From Octopus vulgaris (Eukaryota), in contig OX597825.1 in the NCBI GenBank assembly GCA_951406725.2, forward strand, positions 58,466,001 to 58,530,000: a DNA stretch of 64,000 nt, read 5' to 3'. The first letter of the stretch is position 1, and each line of letters opens with the position of its first letter. The notes beneath the pieces were generated by a model. The model was not told the DNA's origin. It did not search any database and saw only the letters and a list, made by a program, of their open reading frames with translations. The position numbers were made by a program, and so were the translations under genes. Shown piece by piece: positions 13,377-56,873 of this stretch.

Positions 13377-13630
13377 TAATGTGTAAATATTGGATTAAAA
13401 ACCCTTTCGTTAGTAAAGGTCAAAGGCTGTCTCCGGCATGCGCCATGATAGATCGGTAGCCACCAAACCTTTTTCTATTTTCTCTCCCTGTTTATTTTCT
13501 ATGTTTCTTTCTGTTGAAGAGTGTAGGCTCGAAACCTAAAAGACTTTCTCACTTCCCAAGCATTAAACCAATACATTTATTTGTTATTTACACATTAGTC
13601 TTCGTCTTTTGTTTCTTTTGTAAATTCTCA
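13377..13630 (+). mobile_element. PLE pseudo-LTR-like remnant with degenerate minimal hammerhead (13506-13543)
   Basis: TCTTT-CTGTTGA-A-GAGT-GTAG-GCTC-GAAAC-CTA-AAAGA; short inverted arm TAATGTGTAAATA (13377) versus TATTTACACATTA (13585). Confidence 0.55.
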
Positions 13631-13637
13631 ATATGTA

Positions 13638-13679
<42 letters not shown>

Positions 13680-13685
<6 letters not shown>

Positions 13686-15335
13686 ACCACAAAAGAAATG
13701 TCACATACATTAACTGCAACAGTTGTAAGGGACCATGTTTGATTTTTGCAGATAATAAATTTTTATTAAATGTTAAATCTCCATTTTCTTACTTTCTTTT
13801 GAATGATTATAAACCATGATTTATATATAAACCTATGGTTTTATGAAGAATATTATTCACAATAAATATTAGGTATTAAATAGAAACTGGTTTTTCAACA
13901 GACTGCAATAGCATTGATTGAAGAGTGCTAATTAAGAAACTGTTCTTTCCTAATGATAAAACGTCATTTCCTGAAACATATTTGACGTCACATGGTGTCA
14001 CATGATGACACGAACTCAATATCTAGTGTGACCATCATTAGCATTGATTACCACCTGGCATCTTCTGTACATTGAATGCACCAAACGATGAAGATAGCAG
14101 CCCACACTCTGTTAAAGCTTGCAGTGAGTTGTGCCACAGTTGTTAGCCTTGGATGGATGTCATTTAGCCTTCTTTGGATTTCGTCCCACAGGTGTTCTAT
14201 GGGGTTCATGGTAGGCCATGGTAGTGTCTGGATGTTATGTTGTTGGATCAAGTTTGTTGTCAACCTAGCAGTATGGGCACAGGTGTTGTCATGTTGAAAC
14301 ACCTGATTCTGATGATGGGAAATGTATGACACAATGTGAGGCCTCAATATTTGGTCGGTGTAGCATGCAGCAGTTACTCTATTGCCTCAGCCTTGGCTGA
14401 TGTTTTGGAAGACCACCGGTCCAAGTTTCTGGGGTAAGTGTAATCCTGACCCATACCATAATGTTCTGTCCTCCCCATGAGTCTCTCTCCACCACAGCTA
14501 TCGGCATGACGTTCACCCCTTCTCCAAACTCTAGCTCTGTCATCTGCCACAGAAATGTAATATTGACTTTCATCAGAGAAGACTACAGTTCTCCACTGAT
14601 GATATCGTGAGTTCTGACATTTTTGAACCCACTGTAGACATGCCCGTCGATGATGGTCTGTGAAAATGGGAACCCCTAGCCGGACATCGATAAGACAGAT
14701 TGAAAGATCCAGCCGGCGGCGAACTGTCTCTGCACAAATGGGTCTGTAGTGAGTCCCTATGGTCTGCCTAGCTGATTCTGTTACCCCCTAGAATCAGTCC
14801 TACAAGTGCTGTTGGTGCAGGTAGTGATCTTGACATGCTGTTTTAACCTTCGGTTGGCCACTGTATGGATGATCATCCATTCTGTTTGCGGCATTGTATC
14901 ATTCCCTCAGCTGCTCAGTTGTCCGAATACTGCAGTTCAAGTCATTAACAATGACCCATGGACATTGACCAGCGTGGAGATGTCCAATGGCTTGCACCCT
15001 CTGATTTCTGTCAGTCCCGGCATGCTTGCTGTGTTCGACAAATGAGTGACAGCTTGGTAAATTTGAGTGCCTTTTATACCCAGTGAGCCAACCTTTTGCA
15101 CGTGTAGCATGCTTTTCATAAAGGTGTGTTCGCAAGTATTACCATCTTCACAAAAAGTGAGCAAGTTTGATACCTGCATGCAATCCTTGTTTTTTCAAAA
15201 GAGAGTGGTATTGTGGGTCAGTGACATCTTCCTGATGTCAAATTACCTAGAAATGTGATAAAATCCATATAATCTCAATATCGTGTGTGAAACAAATAAT
15301 CTTTTATAGTGCGACATTTCTTTTGTAGTTCAGTA
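13680..15335 (-). mobile_element. Tc1-family DNA transposon, full length, with disrupted transposase
   Basis: TIRs ACTGAACCACAAAAGAAATGTCAC / GCGACATTTCTTTTGTAGTTCAGT in TA context. ORF 14048-14347 has FQHDN...HTA...LPWP..MNPIEHLW (DD34E-type), with VFSDE upstream. Confidence 0.9.
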
Positions 15336-15345
15336 TATATATATA

Positions 15346-15700
15346 CATTCAATTAAAGGCTAAATTAGCCTCATTAAGGAATGGTATCATCCAATGAATT
15401 ACTGGTTTGATACCTAATATTTGTTGTGAATAATAATATTCATAAAACCATAGGTTTATATATAAATCATGGTTTATAATCATTCAAAAGAAAGTAAGAA
15501 AATGGAGATTTAACATTTAATAAAAATTTATTATCAGCAAAATTCAAACATGGTCCCTTACATCTGTTGCAGTTAAGCCTAATAGAGTTATATAGTAATT
15601 ATTAAAATCATTATGTTAGGCAAAATCTCTTCAGAAGGGTCGTAAAAAGACATACCATTAGGTTTTTAAGTATTGTATGTTAGAATCGTCACAGTCTGCT
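15346..15700 (-). mobile_element. PLE pseudo-LTR-like element with degenerate hammerhead (15555-15639)
   Basis: Minus strand: CCCTT-CTGAAGA-...GCCTAA..TTAGGC..-GCAAC-AGAT-GTA-AGGG. 171 bp of it is duplicated in inverted orientation at 13710-13880. Confidence 0.55.
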
Positions 15701-16140
15701 GTGATGATTATGGCCACAAACATAGCACAAGTATATGTACTGACAGGAAGGGGGGGGGGGTAAAAGCTATATACCATCTGGTTGGATTTGACTTACCTAT
15801 AAGCAATGGAATGGTATTTCTGATGAGCTTTAATTTTAAGTGAAATTGGCTTGCCAATTTAGTACCTTTGCTTGCCATAGGGTGGTTAACACCCCTGTCA
15901 GTACATAGACTTGTGCTATGTTTGTGGCTACAAGGGTCTTTGACTCTTATTTCTAACAATGTAGTATTTCGCCTGTTGCTATGTTCTGAGTTTAAATTCT
16001 GCAGAGGTCAACTTTGCCTTTCATCCTTTCAGGGTCGATAAAATAAATACCAGTTGAGCACTGGGGCCAATGTAATAATCTAGTCCCCTCCCACCAAAAT
16101 TTCTGGCCCTTGTGGCTTTAGTAGAAAGGATTATTATTAA

Positions 16141-16191
<51 letters not shown>

Positions 16192-16251
16192 GGTTTGGCA
16201 GAATTAATTGAAATTCAAAAGGCCTTTATTTACATTGCTTTTGTGTGCTGA

Positions 16252-16576
16252 AGTGAAGGCACATAACTTTGTGGTTAAGGTATTTGGTTTACAATCATAA
16301 GGTCGTGAGTTCAATTCCCGGCGGGGCATTGTGTCCTTGAGCAAGACACTTTATTTCATGTTGCTTCAGTCTACTCAGCTGGCAAAAATAAATAGTACCT
16401 GTATTTCAAAGGGCCAGCCTTGTCACACCCTGTGTCATGCTGAATCTCCTTGAGAACTACGTTAAGGGTACACGTGTATGTGGAGTGTTCAGCCACTTGC
16501 ATGTTAATTTCATGAGCAGGCTGTTCCGTTGATCGGATCAACTGGGACCCTCACCATCATAACCGATGGAGTACCA
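16252..16576 (+). mobile_element. tRNA-derived SINE (family D head; tail shared with 54900-55219)
   Basis: GTGAAGGCACAT..GTGGTTAAGG...GAGTTCAATTCCC; tail GAGAACTACGTTAAGGGTACAC. Confidence 0.8.
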
Positions 16577-17253
16577 TAAATCTACTGAGATCAAACTTGC
16601 TTCTTATACTTTGTGACTTAATAATATAGGTACAAAGTACTGAGATCAATATAATCAGTTAGACCAAATTTGTGACCTCCAACAAACGAGGGGAAGGGGC
16701 AATAGGTTGGTTGAACTGTTACAGTGTTGGATTGAAGTCATTACAGTATTTTGTCATAGCTCTTTACACTCTGAGTTCAAATCCCAATGATGTTGAAATG
16801 ACTTTACATTCTTTTGGTGTCAATGCACTGGGATTGATTTCCTCAACAGCTCCTTCTTGTGCCAGCAAATGTGTGGCATTGTGCTAGAATCTGTTTGAGA
16901 GTGAGAGGGTGGGCAGGGTGTGGTGGACAGTGGGGAGTGAGAGGGAGGGAGGTTCATGCCTCACCATAAATGACCAAAGGAAATGACTGAAAAACAGAAA
17001 CGCTATGTGTGAAGAATCAATAAATTGATGAAAATTGATAAATATGTAAACATATTTTCATATGCCAAGATCAAAAAATCAACACACGCATACACACAAG
17101 CATATACACACACAACAAATACTCATACACAAAGAGGTACATTTATGAACATATCTATCAATGTTTATTTTTCTTTTACAAACAAATACGAGTATTCAAA
17201 GACATAAACATACATCTGTTTATCTTTCTCTCTTTCTCTATCTATCTATCTGC

Positions 17254-17322
<69 letters not shown>

Positions 17323-17324
<2 letters not shown>

Positions 17325-17555
17325 ATTTCTTTACTGCCCACAAGGGGCTACACACAGAGGGGAAAAACAAGGACAGACAAACAGATTAAGTTGATTATAT
17401 TGACCTCAATATGTAACTGGTACTTATTTAATCGACCCCAAAAGGATGAAAGGCAAAGTCGGCACGGTGGAATTTGAACTCAGAACATAGCGGCAGACGA
17501 AATACCACTAAGCATTTCGCCCCACGTACTAACGTTTCTGCCAGCTCACCACCTT
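17323..17555 (-). mobile_element. SINE family B
   Basis: Nin/Deu-like core on the minus strand, between (TCTA)n tracts. Confidence 0.8.
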
Positions 17556-18299
17556 GTATATATATATCTATCTATCTATCTGTCTATCTATCTATCTATT
17601 TATCTATCTATCTATCTCCCCCTTTCTCTATCTATCTACCTGTCTACACATACACTTACTCACAGCAATAAATATACATATATATTATATATTTATATAT
17701 GGTAATTAGAGAAATAACTACTTTGCAATTTCAATGAAAGTATTTTTTTTGTTTTTGTGCAAAGTGATTAGCAGAGAGCTCAATTAAATCACAAGATAAA
17801 AAAAAGGTCAGATTTAGAGCGATAATGTAATGATATATGATTATTGCTAAAATGAAAGGTAAATAAAATCGGACAACATATTGAACTAAGATACAGAATA
17901 TATTATGCCAATTTTTTAATGGGTAGCTTCATTATATTGTCGAGTGTCTCTTCATTTTAATTGCAGACTGATGGCATTACATGAATACATACATATGCAT
18001 ATGTATGTAAGTATATATGTGTATGTATGTGTATACTAACACTACAGTACTTGCCACAAATACTCACCTTCGTATGAATGCACACACCCATAGAACTGCA
18101 CAGACACACACGAATTTACTTAATAAAACAGTTAATCATACATAAATGTTATATATTGCTTACACTTGTATAATACATTGTAATATGTTCATGTGCTATA
18201 CTCATGCATGTGTGTGTGTATCTCTCTCTCTTTTTCTCTCTCTCTCTATATATATATATGTATACATATATATATATAGAGAGAGAGATGAGAGAGAGG

Positions 18300-18457
18300 G
18301 AGGCATGACTGTGTGGTAAGAAGCTTGCTTCCCAACCACATGCTTTTAGGTTCAGTCCCATTGTATGGCACCTTGGGCAAGTGTCTTCTACTCTAGCCTT
18401 GGGCCAACCAAAGCCTTGTGAGTGGATTTGGTAGGCAGTAACTGAAAAAAGCCCATC

Positions 18458-18513
<56 letters not shown>

Positions 18514-18690
18514 ATATCTGTGTTTGTCCTCATAACATAGTGGCTCGGCAAAAGAGACCGATAGAATAAGTACTAGGTTTACAAAAAAATAAGTCCTGGG
18601 TTTGATTTCTTTGAATGAAAACCTTTTAAGGCAGTGCTCCAGCATGGCCGCAGTCAAATGACTGAAACAAGTAAAAGAATATAAAAGAAC
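18300..18690 (+). mobile_element. SINE family A
   Basis: Head GGCATGACTGTGTGGTAAGAAGC, internal (TA)n(TG)n, tail GAAACAAGTAAAAGA. Confidence 0.9.
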
Positions 18691-19799
18691 ATATATATAT
18701 GCAATACACTTTGTAGTAGACTGTTGGTATTGCATTCATCATGTCCATCACGACAGAACCAATATACACACATACATAAATACATACACATACACACATG
18801 CACACACACATAGATACATACACACATACATGAGTATGTATATGCATACACACACAGACGCTCACATGAATAAACCTCTGTAAGTATTCTCGTTTATTGC
18901 TCAAAAGTAATTGATTATTTCTTGCAAGTCAGAAGACAAAGTTGACTTTTAGGAAATTCGCTAATATCAGGAATATTCTGAAGCGATGAAGGAAATCTCA
19001 GAAACTAATTCGATGTTGTTGGGCTTTTTCTTTTCTTTTTTTTTGTTGTTATTTTTTTTCAATATAGAGAATCTGATAACTTTGATCTAGACACTAGGCA
19101 AAACTATGATTTTAAGTACATGTGGCTTATTAACGAGGTTCGTTCAAAAAGTAGTGGACATATTAGATTGGTGTGACAGAGTACTTATATGTACGAATGG
19201 CAAGGGAAGAGGACATCTGTAAACCGATAATGTAATAACTGCTTTCCCACATCGATGTGAAAGCATGAGATATATTGATGTAATGTTCTGATGTTTATGT
19301 AATTTATAAAGGCTTTAAGTAAATGAAATACATAGAATCGTTTGAACGGAGATGAGTCAACGATATAAGCAGAATTGTTTGAAACTAGACTTGAAAAAGA
19401 AAACCCAATAGCAATTTTCGCTCTTCAGAGACTTAACCACACTCTTTTAAACAGGTTTTGTTTCAACATTGTATTCATGGTGAAAACCCATAACTGTTTG
19501 GTATAATCACACACACATTTTGAAATGCTTGTTTATTCTGGTCTATTTTACGATGTTATATTTGACTTGATGTGTCTGACTGCTATATTCGACTTGTTAT
19601 AGGGCATAACAGCCATTTCGACACCATCTAATAAAGTGAATGATTGCAGGAACTCATTTGTGGTAGAAGAGGTTGTTACATAATATGGCAGATATTTTCT
19701 GAATATGATGGATCAGAGATTTATTCTTTTTTTTTATATATTTCAATGCTTTAGCCTTATGATGAGTCCTAGGTAAATTATAATTAAATATAACACCAG

Positions 19800-19864
<65 letters not shown>

Positions 19865-19870
19865 ATATAC

Positions 19871-20038
19871 ATGTTTTTATGTGCTAACAGTTTCATATGT
19901 CGAGAACTGCCCCAAACATATTCATCAGTAACAAGCCATATATCATAATGAGTTCTTTACGATATATGTGGTTTGTGCTTGATGAATATGTTTGAGGTAT
20001 TTTCAACACATGAAACTATTACTAGCGCATAAAAACAT
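19871..20038. mobile_element. Head-to-head fold-back pair of eroded hammerhead-bearing pseudo-LTRs
   Basis: Arms 19871-19948 and 19957-20038. Minus arm reads CTGATGA-ATATGT..ACATAT-GAAAC-TGTT-AGCAC; plus arm reads TTGATGA...GAAAC. Confidence 0.7.
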
Positions 20039-20134
20039 ACATTGTGTCTATTAGATAATATTTATCTCTCACCACATGGAGTACTTTTTAGTTGATCACG
20101 GAACAGTACATTATATATATATGATCACGGAATA

Positions 20135-20177
<43 letters not shown>

Positions 20178-20328
20178 TAAATAAATAGAGTTGAACGCTG
20201 ATGCTATTCAAATTCTTTTACTTTTGACATATGTTTCAAAGACAACATTGGTTTTATAGCGTTCTGTTTATCATTTATGCAGTCAGCAAAATTGTTATGA
20301 TGTTTTGTTGTTGAGATAGGTTCTCTTT

Positions 20329-20414
20329 CTTTCCTGATGAGAAGATTGCATTTTTTTACACCGTTTATTCCTTTGGAATAAAACCAATATTGTCTTCGAA
20401 ACATATGTCGAAAG
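20329..20414 (+). ncRNA. Minimal type-I hammerhead ribozyme (intact core)
   Basis: Stem I CTTTC/GAAAG; CTGATGA 20334-20340; stem II GAAGA/TCTTC; GAAAC 20398-20402; palindromic ACATATGT stem III; cleavage triplet GTC 20407-20409. Confidence 0.85.
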
Positions 20415-20667
20415 TAAAAGAATTTGAATAGCATTTGCGTTCAATTCCATTTATTTACTTATACTATACAAATTACTGCACATTAACCCAGAGTTTCTAC
20501 CTTTGAATAGGTCACTACATCCTTGTTACTTGCATGAATTTTGCTACCCTGGTAACTGTTTATTGGATTTTCCATGTTAACGGTAAACAAAGGATAATTC
20601 ATTCATCCATTTACATATATATATATATATATATACATATATTATTCTTATACAAGAATGTTGTTGA

Positions 20668-20710
20668 CAGTGACTTTGAAGTTTCGGCCAGCTAAGCCAT
20701 CATCAGACTG
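20668..20710 (-). ncRNA. Minimal type-I hammerhead ribozyme (intact core)
   Basis: Minus strand: CAGT-CTGATGA-T-GGC..GCC-GAAAC-TTCAAA-GTC-ACTG. It lies in a fold-back with arms 20641-20693 and 20718-20770. Confidence 0.8.
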
Positions 20711-21108
20711 CTAGATAAGCTGGCCAAAACTCCAAAGTTACTGTCAACAACATTCTTGTATAGGAATAATAAATTTGTACTGCTCACAACTGAGATTTTA
20801 TCCAATGAATGACTGTTGTTCACATGATTGTTCTGTAGCCTGTCTGGAACTTTCCGTGAACACACCCTATAAAGCTGCAAGTGTACCCCACTGAAAAGAC
20901 CAAAAGAGCAAAAACGAATTTGATGCTCTTGCTGACCACTGCTGGGACAAGTTTTCATCTCTGATATTTATTGTTTTTAACACAGTAAGTCCATAACAAA
21001 TGTTATCTCAGGACAAATACTGCAGTAACTTGCCTATTAACAGTGTATCTATATTATACTATAAAGATGGTAATTTTAGTTAGAAATTGCCTCAGTTGTA
21101 TTTATCAG

Positions 21109-21154
<46 letters not shown>

Positions 21155-21161
21155 GATAATT

Positions 21162-21572
21162 GTGGAGGGTGTCTGTGGAAGGGGTAGACCCAGGAAGGTG
21201 TGGGATGAAGTGGTGAGAAAGGATCTTTAGACTAGGAGATGTGGCAGTTTGCTGTACTTGATAAAACATGTCAAGCTAAGTGAAATCACTGTTTTCCATG
21301 TATACAGGCTTGGCCTTTCAGGTGGCAGCGCTACTTAAAAATCACCCTTGCTGGTGCTGCGTTAATATATACACTTGTGTTGGTGCTGCATAAATGCACC
21401 CATTCTGGTGGCAGGCAAAAAGCACCCAGCACACTCTGTTAAGTGGTTGGCATTAGGAAGGGCATCCATGCTTCAACAGATAGCAGGAGTCTGGACATTT
21501 CAATGCTAACGAGCTCCATATCAAACTGTCCAACCCATGTCAGCATGGAAAGTAGAAGTTAAACAATGATGC
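21162..21572 (+). mobile_element. 5'-truncated RTE-clade LINE 3' end
   Basis: VEGVCGRGRPRKVWDEVVRKDL* (RTE C-terminal RGRP..W motif), followed by the AGGAAGGGCATCC 3' module and a (GAT) tail. Confidence 0.75.
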
Positions 21573-21583
21573 TATATATATAT

Positions 21584-21744
21584 AGGTGTAGGAGTAGCTG
21601 TGTGGTAAGTAGCTTGTTTACCAACCACATGGTTCCAGGTTCAGTCCCACTGCGTGGCACCTTGGGCAAGTGTCTTCTACTATAGTCTCAGGTCGACCAA
21701 AGCCTTGTGAGTGGATTTGGTAGACGGAAACTCAAAAAGCCTGT

Positions 21745-21810
<66 letters not shown>

Positions 21811-22035
21811 AGTGTGTGTGTGTGTGTCTGTGTGTCTGTGTTTGTCCCCCCAACATTGCTTGGCAACCAATGCTGGTGTGCTTACGTCACTGTAACTTAG
21901 TGGTTCGGCAAAAGAGACCGATAGAATAAGTACTAGGTTAACAAAGAATAAGTCCTGGGGTCGATTTGCTTGGCTAAAGGTGGTGCTCCAGCATGGCCTT
22001 AGTCAAATGACTGGAACAAGTAAAAGAGTAAAAGA
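21584..22035 (+). mobile_element. SINE family A, full length
   Basis: A/B-box head, CORE-like segment, internal (TA)n(TG)n, (TAAAAGAG)n-like tail. Confidence 0.9.
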
Positions 22036-22763
22036 ATATATATATATATACATACATACATAACACTGCAAATCTCTTACATTTTCACTCAGTGGAGTCT
22101 CAGTAGCTCATCTGTTTCATTGAGGTAATCTTCTTTGTGTAATGGTCTGATTACATCAAGATCCACCTCCAGTTTCACAGTTTACAGATTCATGTAACAG
22201 ATCGATTAATCGAGGAAGTTCCCATTTGTTGACGTAATAAATTCTTTTCTTTTCTTCTCTTTTTGGTGGGAAAGCTGCTTCCCCCTCCCTCCCATTGCAA
22301 ATTGAATTAGAAGGATTAAAATAGCAAACGTTCATGTGTTCTTTGGTTTTCAGTAAGCAGGACTGAAAATGAAGCTGAAGCAATCCAAGGAAAATACTAA
22401 AATAGACTTGGGTATTCCAAGAAAGCAAAATGAATATATAAATGCTTAAAAGTCACTTATTAAATGTCATTAAATGGAAACATAATGATTTAATATGTTC
22501 TTTGGTTAAAAATGTTCAAATTCATTTTTATAATTTTTTTTGTGTGTTTCCAGTTTTATTATTATTATTTTAAAAAGATCATTATTTTTTTTAAATAAAA
22601 GGAACCATTGTCATTATTATTCCTTTCATCCTTTCATAGTAGATAAGATAAGAACTAGTTAAGTACCGAGGTTGATGCAATGGACTAGCCCCTCCCCTCT
22701 CTCCCTTCCCCAGAAAAAATCTCAGGCCTTGTACCTATAGTATAAAAGGTTATTATTATTACA

Positions 22764-22796
<33 letters not shown>

Positions 22797-22808
22797 ATTA
22801 TTATTATT

Positions 22809-23364
22809 GAGTGAGAGCGCAGTGCATGCCATCAAAGTGACACTGGGGTAAAATATACGAAGCCCAGTATACCCATCATGACTACCCATCTGATAAGGGT
22901 ACACTAGGCACATGCATCACAACCATGTGTGCGCGACATGGTGATCTCATATCAAGATAAACAGCACATGACCTTGCAGGTGGGGCCCAGTTAGAATTTT
23001 CTTCATGTCAAGTAACCCATCCCACTCGAAAGGTCCCTGAATAAGGGTTGTTTAAGGATGTTGAACGAAACACCTATGTTTCCAGAGGTGAATTATTCAA
23101 ACCCCAAAGAATCCCTCTCAACACACGGCTATGATGCTCCCCCACTACTTCTGCTCATGATCAGAGATGCACATATTGTCAGCCACTAAGGGACATGCAC
23201 AACTGGTTAAGGTCAAACAACTGACAAGCAAATCTGTGGTATTGAGCAGAATATTTGCTGTAGCCCATCTTTTATACCAAGACAAAACAATGTACATGAT
23301 AACACTTCCAATCAGTTAAGATCAGAAGCCATGAGAGCCACTGCCTGGTACTGCATCAGGGCAT
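22809..23364 (-). mobile_element. 556-bp non-coding element inserted in a (TTA)n tract; second copy at 59905-60400
   Basis: Bounded by (TTA)n on both sides; the reverse complement aligns with 59905-60400. Confidence 0.8.
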
Positions 23365-23432
23365 TTATTATTATTATTATTATTATTATTATAATTATTA
23401 TTATTATTATTATTATTATCATCATCATTATT

Positions 23433-23847: not shown

Positions 23848-23883
<36 letters not shown>

Positions 23884-23890
23884 GTTATTA
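23433..23890 (+). mobile_element. Tandem SINE family B copies with (TTA)n tail
   Basis: Two Nin/Deu-like cores. Confidence 0.8.
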
Positions 23891-24402: not shown

Positions 24403-24442
<40 letters not shown>

Positions 24443-25342: not shown

Positions 25343-25445
25343 TATATATATATATATGATGTGTGTATATATATATACATATGTATATATATATAAATAT
25401 ATGATTTGTATACATACATGCATACATACATACATACATATATAG

Positions 25446-27441: not shown

Positions 27442-28885
27442 TGAGGGTCAGTTGAAAACTTCATAGGCTGACCAAGTTACGCTCATGGAATGTCACCACA
27501 TGTGGTTTATTTTTCAACATGCAATCCACACACTTTTTTCATTGGTGTTGCAGTGCTTTGATCCCATTGGTGAAGAAGCTTTCATCCTGTTGGTCAAAAA
27601 AGCCATCAACAGCAGACCTGATGACATCATCACTGCTATACTGGTTCTCAGCCAAGTGTTTTTTTCATGTTGGGAACAGATGAGAGACAAGGTCAAATCA
27701 GGAGATTAGGGAGGGTGATCAAGCCACAGTTATGCTCAGTAGCTACTGAAAGCAAATACTTGTGTGCTGGAGCATTGACCTGATCAAACAAGGCCCTTTT
27801 GTTTAGTTTTCCTGGGTAGTTGGTCTTGATAGCCTTTTGTAACTGCCTCAGCAAGTTGGCATGATACTCTCCATTGATGGTGTGGCCCTTTTGAAGATAG
27901 TCAATAAACACTATGCCCTTTGCATCCCAAAAAACTGAAGCTATCACTTTCCCTGCGGATGAAACGACCTTGGCCTTTTTTTGGAGTAGGTGAGGAGGGA
28001 TGTTTCCATTGCATGGACTGCTTCTTTGTCTCTGGTCCAAAGTGATGAACCCAGCACTCATTTTGGCTTAGAAAATGCTCAAAGCAATCATCTGGATCTA
28101 CCTCCAACACTATAAAATTTTCCTGTAATACGATCAGCCTAGTGCACTTTTGATCAGGTGTCAGAAGACATGGTATCCACTGAGCAGAAAACTTTGTCAT
28201 GTTAAGTTCATTGAGCAGAATATTCTCAACTCTTTCACAGGATATGCTAATATTGGCTATTTGATTTATAGTCAATCACTTGTCATCCATCAGCATGTGG
28301 TGAATACAATCAGTGTTTTCCTCAGTGGTGGCATTTGCAGGGATGTTCAGACCTCAGTTTATCTTCAAAACTCTTCCTTCTTCTCCTAAATTCCGCTGCC
28401 CACTTTTACACTGTTGATAAAGCTGGAGCATCATCTCCTAATGTAGCAATCATGTAGCAATCATTTCTGCAGGCACTTGATAATACTACAATGTAAAATT
28501 TTGATGCAGCACGGAGTTTTGTCAGTGAACAGGTTGCGGTCTCAAAGCAATGAAAATATTTTGACAAATTAAATTTAAATGTTGAAGTGAATCTAACGGT
28601 CTTCTTAAATGGCTTATAAACACCTTCCACACTGCAATTGTTTTCGTTCCAGGACACGATTTCAGATCAGGTCACTTGCTATGCAAGTACATCTCCAAAA
28701 TTTTGTCCATTTTCAAGAAAAGTCACTACAAGTTACTTTTGCAGTCTTCTTTGAACAGTGTGATGTCAGTTTAACTGGAAAGAAGCAATGCGTCTATTAA
28801 TAAGTTGAAATTAATGCATACATGATTTCACAGCTCTAGCATCACTCCTTTATAGTCAGCCTATGAACTTTTCAGCCCACTCTCA
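27442..28885 (-). mobile_element. Mariner transposon (Himar1/irritans-like), disrupted
   Basis: TIRs TGAGGGTCAGTTGAAAACTTCATAGGCTGAC / GTCAGCCTATGAACTTTTCAGCCCACTCTCA. Protein fragments WIPCLLTPDQK, WVHHFGPETKKQSMQWKH and KVIASVFWDAKGIVFIDYLQKGHTING. Confidence 0.9.
28504..28696. mobile_element. 193-bp insertion in the mariner N-terminus with 9-bp TSD
   Basis: AAAATTTTG at 28495-28503 and 28697-28705. Confidence 0.7.
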
Positions 28886-35305: not shown

Positions 35306-35838
35306 CGAGGGGTGTATGAAAATTCTTGAGGCTCAAAAAAACATAACACAGTACAAGACTGCTGAGGATTTATTTTTCAACATAGTCCCTCTTGATGGCC
35401 GAACAATTTCTCCAGCAGTGCTGAAGCGCCATTATCCTGGTGTAGAGGAACTCTTTTGTTTGAGACTCCAAGAAACTTCCTGCAGTGTCTATGACGTCAT
35501 TGTCACTGGCAAAATGGCGACCAGCCAGGGCTTTTTTCATTTTAAGGAATAAATGAAAGTCATAGGGGACTAAGTCTGGCAAATAAGGTGGATGGGGAAC
35601 AAGTTCGTATCCACAATCACAAATTGTTGCCATGGGAACCACTGAGATGTGGGCTGGGGCATTGTCGTGATGAAAAAGGACTCCTCTGGTGAGCATTTCC
35701 AGCCTTTTTTCTTTGATTGCTTTTCGGAGGTGTTTCAGTAGCTGAGAATAATACAGCCTTGACACGGTGTGACCCTTTTCAAGGTAATCGATCAGCAAGA
35801 CACCTTGAGAATCCCAAAAGACTGATGCCAGCTGAAGG
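35306..35838 (-). mobile_element. Truncated mariner (DD34D catalytic half plus one TIR), inserted at TA in a family B SINE
   Basis: ORF 35370-35798 reads FHHDNAPAH...HPPYLPDLVPYDFHLF; TA-CGAGGGGTGTATGAAAA terminus. Confidence 0.9.
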
Positions 35839-35939
35839 AATTGACCCCCAAAAGGATGAAAGGCAAAGTCGACTTCGGAGGAATTTGAACTCAGAATGTA
35901 ATAGCAGATGGCACCTTGGGCAAGTGTCTTTTACTATAG

Positions 35940-38555: not shown

Positions 38556-38605
38556 TATATGTATAAACAAACATTTGTTTTTTTTTATAAGCATTGAAAT
38601 GTTTA

Positions 38606-38932
38606 TTGTAAGATACAAATAAGATGATAATTTATTTTTGAGTGCAGAGATGCTGTTAGAACAGCAGAAATTTTGGGTAAATTACCCTTTCAAAGTTGAA
38701 AAATTTGTCAACAACCAGCCATGGAACTTGAACCCACATCCCTTGAAGACTCAGCGGGCAGTTTAACATAATGGTAAAGCACTTGGCCTGAGTCTTCAAG
38801 GGCTGTGGGTTCGAGTTCCATGGTTGGTTGTTGACAAATTTTTCAACTTTGAAAGGGTAATTTACCCAATATATCTGCTGTTCTAACAGCATCTCTGCAT
38901 TCAAAAATAAATTATCATCTTATTTGTATCTT

Positions 38933-38936
<4 letters not shown>
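38606..38936 (+). mobile_element. Fold-back tRNA-head SINE (149-bp inverted arms)
   Basis: Arms 38606-38754 and 38788-38936 (about 6 mismatches); A box TAACATAATGG at 38764; B box GGTTCGAGTTCC at 38808. Confidence 0.85.
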
Positions 38937-46178: not shown

Positions 46179-46252
<74 letters not shown>

Positions 46253-48086: not shown

Positions 48087-48119
<33 letters not shown>

Positions 48120-48122
<3 letters not shown>

Positions 48123-48767
48123 TACTTTCTAATATAGGCACAAGGCCTGAAATTTTGAAGGGAGGTTGCTAGTTGATTACATCAAACTCAGTTCTTGACT
48201 AGTACTTATTTTATTGACCCTGAAAGGAGGAAAGCAAGATTGACCTTGGTGGGATTTGAACTCAGAACATAAAGCCAGATGAAAGGTTGCTATGTATTTT
48301 GTCTCCACATGCAAGCGATTCTGCCAGCTCCCAGTCTTGATTATAATAATAATAATAATAATAATCCTTTCTACTTTAAGCAGACGGCCTCAAATTTGGC
48401 GGGAGGGGCCTAGTTGATTATATTGACCCCAGTATTCAACTGGTGCATATTTTATCGACCCTGAAAGGATGGAAGGCAACCTTGGCTGCATTTAAACTTA
48501 GAAGGTAAAAGCAGATGAAATGCCTCTAAACATAATAATAATAATCCTTTCTACTATAGGCACAAGGCCTGGAATTTTTGGGGAGGGGATAGTCAATTAC
48601 ATCGACCCAAGTACTTGAGGGGTACTTAATTTATTGATCCCGAAAGGATGAAAGACAAAGTTGACCTTGGTGGAATTTGAACTCAGAACCTAGTGGCAGA
48701 TGAAATACCACCAAGCATTTTGCCCAGTGTGCTAACCATTCTTCCAGCTCACCACCTTAGAAACATG

Positions 48768-48770
<3 letters not shown>
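48120..48770 (-). mobile_element. Three tandem family B SINEs separated by (TAA)n
   Basis: Repeated CCTTTCTACT..GGCACAAGGCC...GAAAGGATG...GAACTCAGAAC. Confidence 0.8.
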
Positions 48771-48809
<39 letters not shown>

Positions 48810-49498
48810 GTTATTGTTATTGTTATTGTTCTTAATCTAGACCCAAGGCCAGCAATTACAAGGTGTTGGGGAGTTGATTGCTTTGTTCCTTAATTGGTAT
48901 TTTATTTTATTGATCCCAGAGCATTAAGGACAAAGCTAACTTCAGCAGGATCCACTGACTTAATAATATAACAATGATGATGATGATAATAATGACTTCT
49001 AAATTTGCACAAAGGTGCAGATGTTTTAAGAGAAGTGTGTAGTTGATTATATCAGTCCTTTATTTGATATCAATCTCGGCAAAGGTGAAAGACAAAGTTG
49101 ATGTTAGGATGATGTGAATTCAGAACACAAAGGGATGAAACTAAATATTGTAAAATTTTTACCAAGTCATCTCTCATCATTATTATATGGTTCTGTAACT
49201 TGCCTGAATCAATGAGTCTATTGAAAGCTGACTGTCTTATTTGTGCATGTCATGACTACAAAAGATTGCAGTAGTTGGCAAACTGCACTGGTTGATCCTG
49301 GTCATTGAAAGTTTGTTGAGTGTCCATCTGCTTAGCATCTAGCGATATTTGCCATTGACTCAATAAATTTGTCTGCTAAAATAGTCTACATGTTCCATGC
49401 TGTATCCCGTAATTTCAATGTAACTCCACCTTGGGTGGTTACCAGGTGCCAAGCCTTGCCAAGGGGTTACCTATGATTTGGTTTGGGGACAAGTCATC

Positions 49499-49532
<34 letters not shown>

Positions 49533-50207
49533 TTGTTGTTGTTAAGCAACAAGACAGGAAAGGGTGATTAGGTGATGGTCTAGGGCTTAGGGGCGGGAGA
49601 CCCCAGACCTTGGAAAAAAAAAAACTTTGGTCATCTTGTTGTAGTCGAGGGCCCTTCGTTGAAACTGACCATATCCAGCCCAAATATTTTATCTGCTTTA
49701 TGTTCAAACTGGCCAGATCCAACCTCTCACATCTACCCTACAATGTCATTCCAAAATTATACAATCACATCATTGAAATCTTACAGCTACGAATTACTGC
49801 ATGACTAATTCAAAATGGTATAAATAAATAAGCATTATATTTGACAGAATAATCTGAATGCTAAAGCGTTAAAGAGCAATAGTTGAATCATGTGACATTT
49901 GTTTTTGCTCAAGGTTACATGTGGAATGGAAACCGGATTGTAATTTTTATTACATTATTGAAATAATGGTGTATTTTGTCTTTATACAAAGTATCAAAGA
50001 ATTTTAATTCTTTGTGTTGTGCTTAGAGCATGAATTGAACTCAAGATTATTTCTGTCAAGTAGACTCAGGCATTGACAGTTATGTACTTTGGTCATGAAC
50101 TCAGCAAAGTACCAGAGATGTGCTACAGATGACTGTATCTTTGATATCTAATTTGATATAGTTATCTACTCAGTCAGGTGAGACTATCATTCAAAATATG
50201 TTTTTGT

Positions 50208-50710
50208 TATCTTTTATCTTTTACTTGTTTCAGTCATTGGATTGTGGGCCTTCTGGGGCACCACCTTAAAGGTTTTTAAGTGAATGAATTGACTCCAGTA
50301 CTTATTTCTTTTAAGTCTGGTACTTATTCTATTTGTCTCTAATACCAAACTGACCCGAAGGGGATCTCAGTAATGACTCCTTGCCAGGACTTGTGCTTGG
50401 GAGGGTAACTTCCTAGGTGCAATCCCATGGTCAGTCATGATTGAAGGGGGTCTCAGTAATACCAAACTGCTCAGATATGGTGATGTAAACAAACCAACAC
50501 TAACTGTCAAGTTTTGGTAGGGGACAAACACAAAGACACACACATATATATATGACAGGCTTCTATCAGTTTCTATCTACCTAATCCACTCACAAAACTT
50601 TGGTTGACCTGAGGCTAGAGTAGAAGACACTTGCCCAAAGTACCATGAAGTAAGATTAAACATGGAACCATGTGGTCGGGAAACAAACTTTTTACCACAC
50701 AGCCATACCT
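50208..50710 (-). mobile_element. SINE family A with a nested 5'-truncated SINE tail (50353-50456)
   Basis: Nested TSD TAATACCAAACTG at 50340 and 50457; the insert matches the tail of 4586-4935. Confidence 0.8.
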
Positions 50711-50957
50711 ATAAAAAAATCATAATGGTGATAAGATATATAAGAAAATGTTAGATCATAAAGCTTATCTATCCATCTTCCTTGCCTGCTATTCTTGAGA
50801 GGGTTTTGTGAGTAGAGTTCTCAGGTACCTCCTGAATAGGGTAGGAGCAACCACTGTTAGACTTTCTGGCTTGATTCTCAAGTATGACTAACTGAGATTA
50901 TGGATATTATCCAGACAGCTCATTCTTGGTCTACCCCTAGGTATCCTGTTAATTAGT

Positions 50958-51446
50958 TCAGCTAAAACATCCAAATTCCATAAATTCATCCAATGTTGGT
51001 ATGGAGTTATTTGACAATGCAGAGATATGCAGCATCATAGATCTATACATCTTAGATATATTGATAACAAAATTCACCAGAATAGATATAAGCTTCTATG
51101 GAAATGATAGGTTTGTTATATCCCAGCAGGTCAATGGACATACTTTAAATCCATTTAGAAAGGACATTACTGGTTTCAGATTTTAGCACAAGGACAGCAA
51201 TTTCATAATAGAATACTTTCTCTCCCTTTCTCACATAAGGCTTTGTGCTGACACAAAAATTTTGGTCAAAGAGCAGAATTTTCGTTGCTTTGCAACCAAG
51301 TTTTCACCTGGGGTAAAAATTCCAAACTCCATAATGTTAATATGGAGTTGTTTGACAATGCAGAGATATGCAACCTCATAAATCTATATATCTTAGACAC
51401 ATCGATAACAAAATTTACCAGAATAGATATCAGCTTCTCTGGAAAT
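50958..51446 (+). pseudogene. Two decayed Penelope-like RT fragments
   Basis: MELFDNAEICSIIDLYILD..IDISFYGNDRF..NGHTLNPFRKDI resembles the PLE RT consensus MGSFDGAExCxLVGLYIL..GLYRDDGL; the second copy adds upstream WGKNS. Confidence 0.65.
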
Positions 51447-53283
51447 CTGGCGGTTCTTTCCTGCAACATTCTCAAAATGCAATCTCTCAATGTGGAGAGA
51501 AGTAAGGTTTGACCTGGTGGGATTCCCTGATCTCTGAGCTATACATCCTGTTGAGTAACATTACTCCAGAGATCCCTTTGGAGGAACACCATTTCTGCCG
51601 CTTGCATTTATGATTACCATGTGATCATATTGGCCAAGGCATGTTAACTAGAATTCTTGATTACTTAACCATCTTCTAACAGAAAATAGGTACTGCAATG
51701 TACAAAACATTGATATGAGGAGCGGCAGCACAGCAGAATAATGGCTTCTGTTAGATATTCAGGAGTATAGTTCTTAATTTGTATATCTTGGATAGGAATG
51801 GATTTTGTCAAACAGTGATAATAACCTAGCACGGTTAATATATTATGAAGCCTTAGTATAAGTCAGTATAATACTGAGGGAATTTGGGTAATAATTCTTC
51901 TTGAAAAATGCATCAAAAAGATTTTTGTGGTCATGTGAACTAAGTTATCACTCAATGAATAGCTTCTGGTATCAATTTAAAAAAAAGTATTTCTTACATT
52001 TGATGTCTAAACAATTTTGGTACAACCCTATAGTAATATAAGTATATATGTGTGTGTATGTACACACACACACACATATATATATATATATGCATATGTA
52101 CCTATAACAAAAGACATATATATATCAATACAAATGAATACTTGTAATATATTACTTCTGTGTGCACATTATAAATATCTACAAACTTATATACTGCTCT
52201 CCACACAGATTTAACAAGCAAACAAACAAATCAACAACAAAGCAAAAAAGAGTTTGAGAAAAAAAGACAAAAATCACAACAGAACAACTTGAAGATCACA
52301 AGAGATCTTTTATATAAGAAAATCTATGATTGACTAAAATTTTCTTAGCTTTAAAATTTCTGTTTATTTATTTATTTATTTATTGGCAAATATTAAATAC
52401 AAGATATAAGATATTCTCTAAAATGCAAAAACATGATAAAAAAATTTCAGAAAAATTTTTGAAATAAAAATAAATTCTAAAAAAACCGAATTAAACTTGT
52501 ATAATATTTGAAATTCTAATAACAATCTTTTTTCTACTTCATCTCTGAAATCCCATTTCTTTCATGTGATGCTAACATTTCAAAATCTTATTTTCCTTCC
52601 TTCCTTCTTTCCTTTCTCTTCCTCATCTTAATTTTAGTTTTCTACTTTTGATTTTCAATTTATTCACTTGTGAATTGAAAACTGTTTACATCAGAGGAAT
52701 TCTTAATATTCTCTCCTAAAATATATGCTGGCGTCAGGGAGGAGATGTCTTCAAGAAGCTGTAAGAATTTAAGATTTTCTAGTTTCTATCATTGTGTTGG
52801 GTTACAAGGAGAGTTTGTGCTAAAGAGCACATGATAAATTACCAACAAGTCAAAATGACAAACTGGTTTCCATTCCTTGTGGAATCCAGTTCATTTCACT
52901 AACACCATTAATACTCTTTACAAAGTATTGTTTTCCCTGTGATTCCCTGTTTGCTCTTGTGCTTAGTTCATGAACTGATGGAAGCTAATTTATTTCACTT
53001 AAACTATTAATATTTTTGCAAAAGCATGAACCTCATGTAATCTCTTCCCTCTATACATCAATGACTTGTCTTGTGTACATAAACTTTATCATGAATTTGC
53101 CAGAATGTCAGTGAAACCAAAAAGTAAATATAAAAAAAATGAAAAATGGTGACTGTCTTATTCTTCATCTCAGTGTCTATATTTTTAGCCTTCTGTAATG
53201 GTGTCAAGTCTTGTCTCTTTAGGGCTTTCATTTTACCTTGCATTTTTTTCTCAAGATTGTTAAAGAAAGTACCAGTCACATAA

Positions 53284-53502
53284 CAAAGTTTTTACCTGGG
53301 CTAAAAAATCCAAACTCCTTAAAATTCATCCAATGTTAGTATGGAGTTGTTTGACATTGCCGAGATATTTAGCCTTATAGATCTTAGATACATCAATAAC
53401 AAATTTCACCAAAATAGATATAACCTTCTATGGAGATGATAGGTTTGATAGATCCCAGTAAGCCAATGGACATACTTTAGATCCATTTAGGAAAGACATT
53501 AC
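53284..53502 (+). pseudogene. Third decayed Penelope-like RT fragment
   Basis: WAKKS..NVSMELFDIAEI..KIDITFYGDDRF..NGHTLDPFRKDI. Confidence 0.65.
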
Positions 53503-53944
53503 TGGTTTCAAATTTTGGCACAAGGACAGCAATTTGGAGGGAAGGTTAAGTCGATTACATCAACTCCAGTGCTCAACTGGTACTTATATTATCGATCCTC
53601 AAAGGATGAAAGGCAAAGTTGTCGTCGGTGAATTTGAACTCAGGAAGAAAGGCCTCTAAGCATCATACCTGGCATGCTAATGATTCTGCCAGTTCACTGC
53701 CTTTTGAAAAGACATTATTAACAGCTTCAAAAGGCAGTGAGCTAGCAGAATCGTTAGCACACCGGGCAAAATGTTTAGCGGTATTTCATCTGCCGCTACA
53801 TTCTGAGTTCAAATTCCACCAAGGTCGACTTTATTTTTCATCCTTTCGGGGTTGATAAATTAAGTACCAGTTGAGTACTGGGGTCGATCTAATCGACTTG
53901 CCCCCTCCCCCAAAATTTCGGGCCTTGTGCCTAGAGTAGAAAAG
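53503..53944. mobile_element. Head-to-head pair of family B SINEs
   Basis: Minus copy 53503-53703; plus copy 53731-53944 with 17-bp TSD ATTATTAACAGCTTCAA. Confidence 0.85.
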
Positions 53945-54110
53945 ATTATTAACAGCTTCAATAGTTGAGGTCTAGAAATAACTATCACAACTATTCTAAA
54001 TATTGTAAATTTCTAAAATGTTACTCCAAGACAAATCTGAACAATATAGCAAATTTAATAAAAAGTCTCAAAACTTAATATAGATAATAGAAGCACATAT
54101 ACATACATAA

Positions 54111-54159
<49 letters not shown>

Positions 54160-54462
54160 TCTCATATTTGGGAGGATATAAAAAAAGTTACATTGCTCAA
54201 CATGTTCTTAAATGAATCTAAAAAAGGAAAACTAATATAATAATAAAATGCAAAAAAAGGAAATGAATACTTAGTGAAATAAATCTTCGACATTTTGTAA
54301 GATTAAAAGAGAGAAACAGTGAAATAACTTTAAAAACATTTAATAAACTTTTAAATATTGAACAGAAAAATGAGGAGTTAAAAAATTGTGAAATGTGAAA
54401 GTGCTTTGTTTTGTCTCTGTCTGGTTTTCTCTGCTTTTGTGTAAAATAAATAGGTAGGTAGG

Positions 54463-54660
54463 TATGTATGTATGTATGTATACTTGTATGTATGTATGTA
54501 TGTATGTATGTATGTATGTATGTATGTGTATGTATGTATGTATGTATGTATGTATGTATGTATGTATGTATGTATGTATGTATGTATGTATGTATGTATG
54601 TATGTATGTATGTATGTACGTATGTATGTATGGTTGTATGTATGTACATATGTATGTATG
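54463..54660. repeat. (TATG)n microsatellite
   Basis: About 200 bp of near-perfect tetranucleotide repeat. Confidence 0.95.
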
Positions 54661-54704
54661 TTCATTTGTTCTCTTCTATTTTTAATTATTTAATTTCTTC
54701 CTCT

Positions 54705-55790
54705 TAGGAACGAGCTGGTTTCTAAAAAAGATTTAATGCTCCATTGTTGAAACGTAGATAACAAAAGTAATGTTACATTTTAAACTTAAGAAAAGTCTTA
54801 CATATTTTTACTGTTCCATTTACAGATTGTATTTGTAATGTGTGAGTTAGTTGATTTCTTTTTCTGAAAACTCTAGCATATCCAGATTGTCACTTAGGCA
54901 TTCTGTCGGTTACGACGATGAGGGTTCTAGTTGATCCAGTCAATGGAACAGCCCACTCATGAAATTAATCTGCAAGTAGCTGAGCACTCCACAAACACAT
55001 GTACCCCTAACATAGTTCTCAGGGAGATTCAGCATGACATAGAGTATGACAAGGCTGGCGCTTTGAAATCCAGGTACTACACATTTTTGCCAGCTGAGTG
55101 GATTGGAGCAACATGAAATAAAGTGTCTTGCCCAAGGACACAGTACATCACCAGGAATGGAACTCACAGCTTTACGATTGTGAGCTGAATACCCTAACCA
55201 CTAAACCACACGCCTTCACTGTACCAACTATTATTGTATAAATGTGAATTTACAATCTGGATACAGAAGCTGAAGGTTTTGAAGTAGTTGTCCATAGTTA
55301 TCCTCTTTCCCTTTGAGAGATTTGCATCAGCAGGTCAGCTGACATCTATGATGGTGTATACTTTTTCTTATAAGCCCCAAATAGCAAAATCTGGCCTCCC
55401 TTATTAACACTTCACAGCTGTTTTAATGGGAATGTTCCACCAATATTCTTTGTGTTGATATTTGTGTGTGTAATCAAAAAGGGTATTCTCTCTATTTATT
55501 CCAGGATAGTCTGTCTTCCATATGGCATTGTATATTGTTTTTGTAACAACTTTGTATTGCATAGAGTGCTAGTACCTTGATAACATTTTTAGGCAGCTAC
55601 TATCCACAGAAATATGACAATTTACATTTTTGGTTGCATCTTGGAGCACTAAAGGCATCCTTCACTGTCTTATTTATTAGATATTTTGTAGCAATCTCAT
55701 GTTCTTGGATTGTAAATGGATAGCCTTTGAAGTGTGATGTGATGCAGCAATCATATCAATAATACTGTCTTCTTCAAGTCTTCAGGGAAC
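54705..55790 (-). mobile_element. Second copy of the RLE non-LTR element, split by a family D SINE (54900-55219)
   Basis: Reverse complement aligns with 4150-5200 (WWNIPIK, EDNY, GTV..CKTFL). Confidence 0.75.
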
Positions 55791-55821
<31 letters not shown>

Positions 55822-55874
55822 TGTATGTATGTATTATGTATGTATATATGCATGTATGTATATATGCATGTATT

Positions 55875-56178
55875 TGTGGAGTCGCAATGACCTAGTGGTT
55901 AGGGCAGCAGACTCGCGGTCGGAGGATCATGGTTTCAATTCCCAGACTGGGCGTTGTGTGTGTTTATTGAGCGAAAACACCTAAAGCTCCATGAAGCTCC
56001 AGTAGGGGGTGGTGGCGACCCCTGTTGTACTCTTTCGCCCCAACTTTCTCTCACTCTCTCTTCCCGTTTCTTGAGTAATGTTGCGATGGACTGGCATCCT
56101 GTCCAGCTGGGGGGAACACATACGCAACAGAAATCGGGAAACCGGGCCTATGAGCCTGGCTAGGCTTGAAAAGGGCGA
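55875..56178 (+). mobile_element. SINE family C, tail variant 2
   Basis: Homologous to 29336-29656. Confidence 0.85.
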
Positions 56179-56519
56179 AAAAAAAGAAAGAAAGTATTTA
56201 TGTATGTATATATGTATGTATGCATGTATAAAGCTAGAATAGTGGTTACCACCTTGAAGGTGGTGCTGCACAAACTGATATATGCATACTTGGTATCCAC
56301 AGAATATTCCAAGTATGTATATATTAGCTAGTGCAGCCCCACCTTTAAGGTCAGAGCTGGTAATCACTATTCTAGCATTAAATCTTGACTGAAAACTAGC
56401 AGCAGTTCTTTATCTAAGCTCATTCATAACCTAAAACAAAACTTAGCCCTAAAGAATTTTAAATAGTTCATTGTTACCCATGCCAAACCATATAATAGTT
56501 ATCAACAACAAATGTAATA

Positions 56520-56873
56520 CAGTTCTATGTTTAAGACATGAGGAATTATGTACATTATTTACAATTGACAGATATTTGTCCTCATCTTGTTTGTTGTTAA
56601 CACAATGTTTCAGCTGATATACCCATGGGTATATGGCATAGTGGTTAAGAGCGCGAGCTACTAACCCCAAGATTCCGAGTTCAATTCCAGGCAGTGACCT
56701 GAATAATAATAATAATAATAAAAATAATAAAATCAAAAAATACCTTAGGAATTAGAACTCAGGTTCGAAATTTCCCCAAGACACCTGATGAAGGCTGGAA
56801 GGTATATTAGCCGAAACGTTGTGTTAACAACAAACAAGATGAGGACAAATATCTGTCAAATGTAAATAATGTA
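56520..56873 (+). mobile_element. Fold-back element: tRNA-derived head + (AAT)n + hammerhead + tail
   Basis: A box TGGCATAGTGG at 56634; B box GAGTTCAATTCC at 56677; arms 56551-56623 and 56801-56873. Confidence 0.85.
56780..56825 (+). ncRNA. Minimal type-I hammerhead ribozyme
   Basis: GACAC-CTGATGA-A-GGCT..AGCC-GAAAC-GTT-GTGTT; palindromic AACGTT in place of a stem III hairpin. Confidence 0.75.

Follow-up and report, generated by a model that had tools for sequence, protein, structure and literature searches.

Are the short fold-back repeats of an octopus genome independent RNAs that borrow the enzymes of Penelope-like elements (PLEs), or are they pieces of the PLEs themselves? The question is raised by a stretch of 64,000 nucleotides of Octopus vulgaris DNA, hereafter the window (C12:58466001-58530000 of a 2.8 Gb genome assembly in 227 contigs), in which a first-pass annotation made from the letters alone had described six fold-back elements, labeled here A (19871), B (20172), C (20641), D (38606), E (56520), and F (13710/15406). 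The answer centers on element E which, to judge from its sequence and from the motifs and domain order that define its class, is the whole pseudo-long terminal repeat (pseudo-LTR) of a protein-coding PLE of the Penelope/Poseidon type, in which a tRNA-like head precedes the start of the open reading frame (ORF).

In all genome searches, only the best 40 (DNA) or best 150 (protein) candidates were scored; the samples are query-biased and candidate counts are lower bounds. Element E was sampled in 30 loci, the window copy included, and in a second set of 29 loci picked by their 3′ end (59 together). The A and B boxes of E were assigned by consensus motif, and the designations "Hydra-type" and "Neptune-like" were assigned from domain order and linker motifs in comparison with PMC8557442, not from a tree. 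An Rfam scan of the window gave 242 matches, of which the top 150, microsatellite noise, included neither a hammerhead nor a tRNA, and Rfam gave no score for the minimal hammerhead of E.

Element E and Its Coding Parent

The window copy of E is organized as follows.

56627..56878, plus strand: element E, a solo pseudo-LTR of a Penelope/Poseidon-type PLE, in the order tRNA-like head, (AAT)n, ORF start with hammerhead, short 3′ end
56634..56644, plus strand: A box of the tRNA-like head, the same in the family majority line
56679..56688, plus strand: B box, 45 nt after the A box, a tRNA-like spacing
56751..56753, plus strand: position of the PLE ORF start codon, ATT in the window copy and ATG in relatives; the frame runs on into the PLE ORF in locus L382
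56780..56825, plus strand: minimal type-I hammerhead, CUGAUGA ... GAAACGUU, with an ACGU palindrome instead of stem III
56520..56622, minus strand: inverted 3′ part of E, which has the complete 26-nt tail missing from the direct copy
56507..56515 (left) and 56881-56889 (right), plus strand: 9-bp target-site duplication (TSD)

The repeat is abundant (at least 3609 first-look candidates in its first search) and has two classes of 3′ end approximately 26-30 nt apart. Its link with a coding element is provided by loci recovered through the endonuclease region of the parent (at least 2976 first-look candidates): in 28 of 30 such loci the coding sequence runs into E approximately 38 nt past the stop codon, and the head is deleted in the other two. 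At the opposite end, the near full-length copy L382 comprises an inverted E arm followed by an E tail leading straight into the N-terminus of the ORF, and in five of the seven translated copies the frame stays open across the hammerhead as far back as an ATG at positions +121 to +130 of E (of the other two, the window copy has ATT and one is without an anchor). E occurs both after the ORF stop and before the ORF, where it holds the ATG, the hammerhead, and the first approximately 50 codons. In the second sample, loci L319, L323, and L340 share sequence upstream of the E head, and a reverse transcriptase (RT) is found there in L319.

The parent has a single ORF with a PLE RT together with a C-terminal GIY-YIG-type endonuclease, seen in broken copies only. 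Its protein carries a DKG-like motif and YVDD; the endonuclease, by eye and against the description in PMC8557442, shows the Cys-x-Cys/His/His pattern and has no CX2-5CxxC linker ahead of it. Protein searches gave 259 relatives at an E-value of ≤1e-10; relatives are 60-73% identical, many with RVT_1, and the Octopus sinensis homologue is 73% identical. Pfam scans of PLE frames gave a sub-threshold GIY-YIG match or nothing.

The layout fits that of Poseidon-Ac, whose ORF starts in the hammerhead, whose tail is set by two internal sites of RT initiation, and which requires 172 nt of its ORF (PMC11167929); in keeping with this plan, E extends from the tRNA-like head to two ends approximately 130 and 160 nt into the ORF. 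Because the whole unit is its partner's pseudo-LTR and holds the first codons of that partner, E is not a separate tRNA-derived short interspersed element (SINE). As a matter of structure, it is very probable that the pseudo-LTR of this Poseidon-type PLE contains a tRNA-like promoter cassette.

The first-pass annotation had expected autonomous PLEs to share the tails of these elements. Such a partner is present for E, and A and B are linked to endonuclease ORFs, whereas none was found for C, D, and F. The tails of E, D, A, and C had no match in 30 GIY-YIG loci, and E, D, F, A, B, C, and H had none in the 3′ regions of 40 further PLE loci (two dropped with no protein hit). A separate candidate, E as the 3′ untranslated region of a Hydra-type PLE (L006), was rejected: none of 29 other copies of that ORF end leads into E, and L006 is a one-off chimera. 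In it (L006:1357-1756), an inverted segment of unknown source, 100 bp from the end of a Hydra-type ORF, and one full copy of E meet at short microhomology, which suggests RT template switching between PLE families.

Fold-Back Arms and Insertion Signature

All six inverted pairs are present in the window, with arms confirmed at 19871-20038, 20168-20257/20378-20468, 20637-20774, 38606-38936, 56520-56622/56781-56878, and, as a pair, 13710-13880/15406-15576; A, B, C, and D adjoin (TA)n or (CATA/TA)n, in agreement with the four elements noted earlier beside (TA)n. Five of the six had been credited with hammerhead cores. Intact cores are found in A, B, C, and E, whereas those of F are mutated in the window and none was found in D; among relatives, the core is counted in 18/30 for E, 22/25 for B, 16/17 for A, 11/19 for C, and 13/18 for F.

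The arm of E lies at the 5′ end in 19 of 30 loci and at the 3′ side in none of the 30, and a 5′ arm is present in 21 of 29 loci of the second sample. For D, 18 of 28 loci have a 5′ arm, with no entry in the 3′-side column of the D table. In a comparison set of three other SINE-like repeats, an abutting arm is found in 1 of 104 copies, and in repeat G in 0 of 25. In the same comparison, only two of six unselected E copies have an arm under a strict 60-bp rule, one of them being the window copy. Where the arm is 3′-derived, the tail of E stands at exactly one end in 15 of 16 copies (L024 being scored as full though 8 nt short by alignment), and it is 22-35 nt long in most copies.

The window copy is flanked by AACAAATGT at 56507 and 56881, a 9-bp TSD. 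Flanking repeats of at least 7 bp are found in 13 of 30 E copies vs. 2.8% of mismatched flank pairs, and in the second sample in 15 of 29, with TSDs of 8-14 bp, vs. 2.5% of mismatched pairs. The earlier statement that no TSD is evident was thus wrong for E, the element examined in this respect.

In PMC8557442, the signature of PLE insertions is described as an inverted, 5′-truncated copy at the 5′ end together with a tail of 30-40 bp that is confined to one of the two ends. The fold-back layout is this known insertion signature, and the proposal that PLE rather than long interspersed element (LINE) or miniature inverted-repeat transposable element (MITE) machinery is at work is borne out by the inverted 5′ arm, the one-end tail of approximately 25-35 nt, the variable TSD, and the minimal hammerhead. 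Long local inverted repeats and TA-rich flanks would also suit MITEs, or fold-back DNA transposons whose terminal inverted repeats are fixed; however, no two copies agree in arm length and junction, many are arm-less, TSDs vary from 8 to 14 bp, and copies run on into RT/endonuclease ORFs. The fixed terminal repeats and constant-length TSDs that the first-pass annotation had named as marks of ordinary MITEs are not those of E, whose arms and TSDs vary. The MITE reading is refuted for E, A, and B and is, overall, exceedingly improbable.

The 5′ Edge of E and Its Transcription

The head is reached in 44 of 59 E loci, of which 40 end between -23 and +12 of its first base and four go further; values near -14 are inflated by a palindrome at the head boundary. 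Arm-less copies also start at the head, and the inverted arms of several long copies likewise stop there. Solo E copies are probably by-products limited by the start of the transcript. We somewhat favor the fuller account in which E is a pseudo-LTR with tRNA-like boxes and its solo copies are by-products of internally started RT that end at a transcript start, possibly one that RNA polymerase III (Pol III) sets. An endonuclease nick would be followed by target-primed reverse transcription from two internal sites, yielding the tail, as suggested by the biochemistry of Poseidon-Ac (PMC11167929). RT would start approximately 130-160 nt into the element's own ORF and copy back to the 5′ end of the transcript, which would lie at the tRNA-like head, with Pol III as the putative polymerase. 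Long copies with ORF and E would derive from tandem or hammerhead-processed templates, and solo copies, which lack the part of the ORF downstream of the RT start, would for that reason be incapable of a further move.

The first-pass annotation had taken solo copies for an independent Pol III SINE, which in this case would have been born from the PLE pseudo-LTR and mobilized in trans. Kept A and B boxes, the lack of runs of four T (T4) in 29 of 30 solo copies, first-look candidates in the thousands, and the PLE insertion marks agree with such a SINE. On the other hand, among flagged columns none has a different majority base between 29 solo and 30 ORF-linked copies, a crude comparison confounded by deletions and flanks; by analogy with Poseidon-Ac, in which the template must include 172 nt of ORF beyond the RT start (PMC11167929), solo copies would lack a necessary part; and RNA sequencing (RNA-seq) gives no signal of a free unit-length RNA. 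This origin of the solo copies is improbable.

Returning to the by-product account, scarcity of T4 is a prediction of the Pol III idea, and L382 has no TTTT in 2631 nt (base shuffle, P=0.0013). Runs of four or more T (T4+) occur at 0.30/kb over 27 kb of the coding strand of E's parent vs. 3.06/kb in Neptune-like ORFs with the same 22% T, and at 6.3/kb in Hydra-type ORFs; a synonymous-codon null gives P=0.02 on 1221 nt. A4 runs are normal in the coding strand of the parent, and the 3′ regions of other PLEs examined are rich in T4 runs.

The same 5′ edge would arise in an ordinary RNA polymerase II (Pol II) PLE that passively captured a SINE or tRNA head, if 5′ ends pile up through RT stall or fold-back at the structured head and palindrome. 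Consistent with passive capture are the palindrome at the boundary and the frequent head-to-head junctions, the clustering of 5′ ends near hammerheads in relatives of A and C, which are without a tRNA head (query-biased samples), two non-significant nulls for T-runs, and the argument that autonomous LTR partners need Pol II, Pol III being weakly processive (PMC10886601). It is opposed by the arm-less copies that also start at the head, by a tenfold shortage of T4+ runs relative to PLE ORFs of this genome with matched T content, A4 being normal, and by the many T4 runs in other PLE 3′ regions. Passive capture is accordingly unlikely, although it is the stronger of the two competing origins considered for E.

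Several observations nonetheless weigh against the by-product account and its Pol III component. The 12-bp palindrome that spans the head boundary could on its own make RT stall or act as a primer for fold-back. Under codon-order (P=0.17) or dinucleotide shuffling (P=0.22), the depletion of T-runs does not reach significance, and the T-run copies represent one family and are non-independent. DNA of related PLEs was found in neither metagenome nor prokaryote collections, so the comparison is without a head-less Poseidon-type ORF. The tRNA-derived A and B boxes attributed to E and D are present in both (at 56634 and 56679 in E), but E is weakly tRNA-like by model: the head of its best copy scores 10.8 bits on the Rfam tRNA model, with an E-value of 9.7, and ARAGORN calls none in 30 loci. 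Pol III transcription would also require that an uncapped RNA be translated. No intact ORF is found among the E-parent copies examined, the longest open frame being 362 aa and partly microsatellite; the family may be extinct.

The RNA-seq evidence is of the same kind. The E stretch is present in five organisms in a sequencing-run search, which listed no RNA record for it, and in three RNA-seq runs of one study, from another organism, approximately 5,700-7,900 reads per run fall on E. Both strands are equally represented, 75-76% of reads continue into other sequence, and no pile-up of starts or ends is seen in the three runs; no circle junction is found among the rows shown, and loose read ends reproduce the two 3′ classes of E, the inverted head, and upstream PLE sequence. 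These reads fit with or without a Pol III transcript and neither show nor exclude one. That the coding RNA of E's parent is transcribed by Pol III is, from the sequence features above, a possibility falling somewhat short of even chances. About equally tentative is the full scenario, in which the whole PLE RNA of approximately 2.6 kb is made by Pol III from a captured tRNA-type promoter, the ORF has been purged of terminators, thousands of SINE-like solo pseudo-LTRs have been left behind in octopus genomes, and a direct route leads from a PLE to SMalpha-like "SINEs."

Relation to Known Systems

Poseidon-Ac of Anolis resembles E in the combination of RT and C-terminal GIY-YIG and in the ORF start over the hammerhead, as well as in two 3′ ends that give a tail of approximately 30 nt, in the inverted 5′-truncated copy, and in the minimal hammerhead (PMC11167929; PMC8557442; PMC4209133). 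E adds to the plan described there an A/B-box head at the 5′ edge of the pseudo-LTR, a sharp pile-up of 5′ ends, and a T4-free unit. The SMalpha and Sjalpha elements of schistosomes likewise combine tRNA-derived sequence and a type-I hammerhead in a short repeat and are reported as apparently Pol III-transcribed (PMC2770079; PMC6765202). They are, however, described as non-coding, SINE-like tandem units without a link to an ORF, whereas E is part of a coding element; element D is alike in layout, but has no detectable hammerhead.

Non-LTR retrozymes are short hammerhead repeats related to PLE pseudo-LTRs and proposed users of PLE enzymes (PMC7229834; PMC7761336; bioRxiv 10.64898/2026.07.22.740005), and they have been treated as PLE derivatives, mainly in vertebrates (bioRxiv 10.64898/2026.07.22.740005). 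They consist of tandem hammerhead units with circular RNA, whereas A, B, C, E, and F occur mainly as solo or inverted copies, with a link to coding sequence in the case of A, B, and E, which sets these five apart from retrozymes. A small-RNA-derived Pol III promoter within the terminal repeat of a retroelement is also found in the TRIMp3 elements Cassandra, Helenus, and Ajax (PMC10886601); these are non-autonomous LTR elements of 0.3-1.3 kb, whereas the host of E is a protein-coding PLE of approximately 2.6 kb.

A full-text literature search, with subscription journals, Repbase, and Dfam mostly outside it, found no tRNA-type promoter in a PLE pseudo-LTR and no PLE-moved octopus SINE. In the portions of text and supplement of PMC13282606 covered, there is no mention of a hammerhead or ribozyme. 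The octopus OK and OR SINEs were described by Ohshima and Okada (1994), as cited in later passages.

If Pol III transcription were true, a tRNA-type promoter would drive E's protein-coding parent, an arrangement deemed unlikely for autonomous elements (PMC10886601), and this would tie together PLE transcription, the role of the hammerhead (possibly the processing of an uncapped RNA), and the origin of tRNA-plus-hammerhead "SINEs." Even without Pol III, an abundant SINE-looking octopus repeat is a solo PLE pseudo-LTR, and repeat annotations of cephalopods may therefore misassign how much is SINE and how much is PLE. Furthermore, the 5′ ends of solo copies can map PLE transcription starts.

The Other Elements of the Window

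The remaining fold-back elements and the transposon that surrounds part of F are located as follows.

19871..20130, minus strand: element A, 5′-truncated 3′ end of an endonuclease-coding Hydra-type PLE plus inverted arm; hammerhead at 19928, minus strand; outer arm limit by eye
20168..20617, plus strand: element B, 5′-truncated 3′ end of an endonuclease-coding Hydra-type PLE; hammerhead at 20334; inverted arm 20168-20257
20637..20800, minus strand: element C, the 3′ end, with hammerhead, of a longer element, and an inverted arm whose outer limit was read by eye
15340..15700, minus strand: main copy of element F, 3′ end of a hammerhead family with mutated core; 5′ limit approximate
13710..13880, plus strand: inverted local duplicate of part of F, TTAA-bounded, within the Tc1-like element
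13681..15337, minus strand: decayed Tc1-like DNA transposon; terminal inverted repeats by eye; DDE_3 match under the Pfam cut-off
38566..38936, plus strand: element D, a unit of approximately 290 bp containing a tRNA cloverleaf, plus inverted arm; direct copy approximately 38758-38936; tandem in some relatives

Element A continues upstream into PLE endonuclease coding sequence in 3 of 20 loci, and B reaches a Hydra-type endonuclease coding sequence in 10 of 24 relatives, 21 of which extend 79-956 nt upstream past the query (some extents include shared arms). By this continuation, A and B are to be regarded as stumps of other PLE families without a tRNA head. C and F are probably the same kind of stump. 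Four relatives of C share 60-270 bp upstream, and in the loci tried neither C nor F is preceded by a protein match. An endonuclease hit in L173 was rejected as a link between C and an ORF because it lies on the wrong side and strand.

The pair 13710/15406, described earlier as a sixth, split fold-back, is not one insertion, since 13710-13880 sits inside the Tc1-like transposon. Both window copies of F have GCAAC in place of GAAAC, while 13 of 18 relatives keep the core; four departures from the family are common to both copies, and three are private to each. Most simply, 13710-13880 would be a later local copy of F. Solo and opposite-strand minimal hammerheads have previously been reported as probable truncated PLEs (PMC4209133), and A and B, and probably C and F, are ordinary PLE debris of this already-known kind.

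Element D has a good tRNA cloverleaf: its relative L104 scores 47.3 bits on the Rfam tRNA model, ARAGORN calls a tRNA in 4 of 28 loci, and the majority line has a T5 run soon after the cloverleaf. Head-to-tail (partial) tandem units are found in L100, L102, and L117. There is no convincing hammerhead core in the window copy or its relatives, no linked ORF in 28 loci, and the circular fold is unremarkable (z = +0.9 and -0.4). D is the sole candidate here for a truly non-autonomous, PLE-moved tRNA element. The first-pass view of several independent non-autonomous RNAs is not upheld, as A and B run into endonuclease coding sequence, E is the pseudo-LTR of a coding PLE, and only D still looks non-autonomous; the claim of several PLE-moved mini-RNAs in the window reduces mostly to known PLE debris.

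Two further hammerhead repeats lie near F. A seventh fold-back, missed in the first-pass annotation, is found at 15713-15928, with 35-bp inverted arms around a hammerhead (core at 15820) whose stem III is long and self-contained; its insertion site is the 5′ end of F. Repeat G (13377-13630) is very common and short, with a minimal ACGU hammerhead whose core is usually CUGUUGA, and it has a sister family with a CUGACGA core and a seemingly fixed 5′ start; both are possibly solo pseudo-LTRs of other Poseidon-type PLEs.

Penelope Remnants and Neighboring Families

The decayed PLE RT that had been placed at 51-53.5 kb is indeed present.

50965..51201, plus strand: decayed RT fragment of a Hydra-type PLE that is not E's partner; partly duplicated at 51330-51500 and 53369-53533

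The fragment is 37% identical over 62 aa to an intact PLE frame of 727 aa. A reading of 51-53.5 kb as a LINE fragment only was rejected, the plus strand being PLE RT. Interleaved with this remnant, the minus strand at 50850-51680 holds a decayed frame that we take, by its motifs, to resemble the 3′ end of an RTE-type LINE; the last approximately 100 bp of this frame are a common repeat.

Elsewhere in the genome, intact Hydra-type PLE frames of 727 aa are found in L074:3003-5186 and L080, with several near-identical copies, and YKDD replaces the usual RT motif in the copies seen of the L080 family. L237 (G000:C16:33683715-33686978) and many other loci belong to a young Neptune-like PLE family with many open frames of 781 aa and a U3-A8 covariant hammerhead core. 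The 3′ regions of L253, L229, and L282-L286 are Neptune-like, with hammerhead-like cores ending in GAAAG rather than GAAAC, by eye a swapped 15.2-16.2 pair. Within the window, open frames on the minus strand at 27693-28275 and 35370-35930 resemble, by eye, fragments of mariner transposase, and a long imperfect palindrome at 53506-53942 apparently comprises two head-to-head copies of a common SINE-like repeat.

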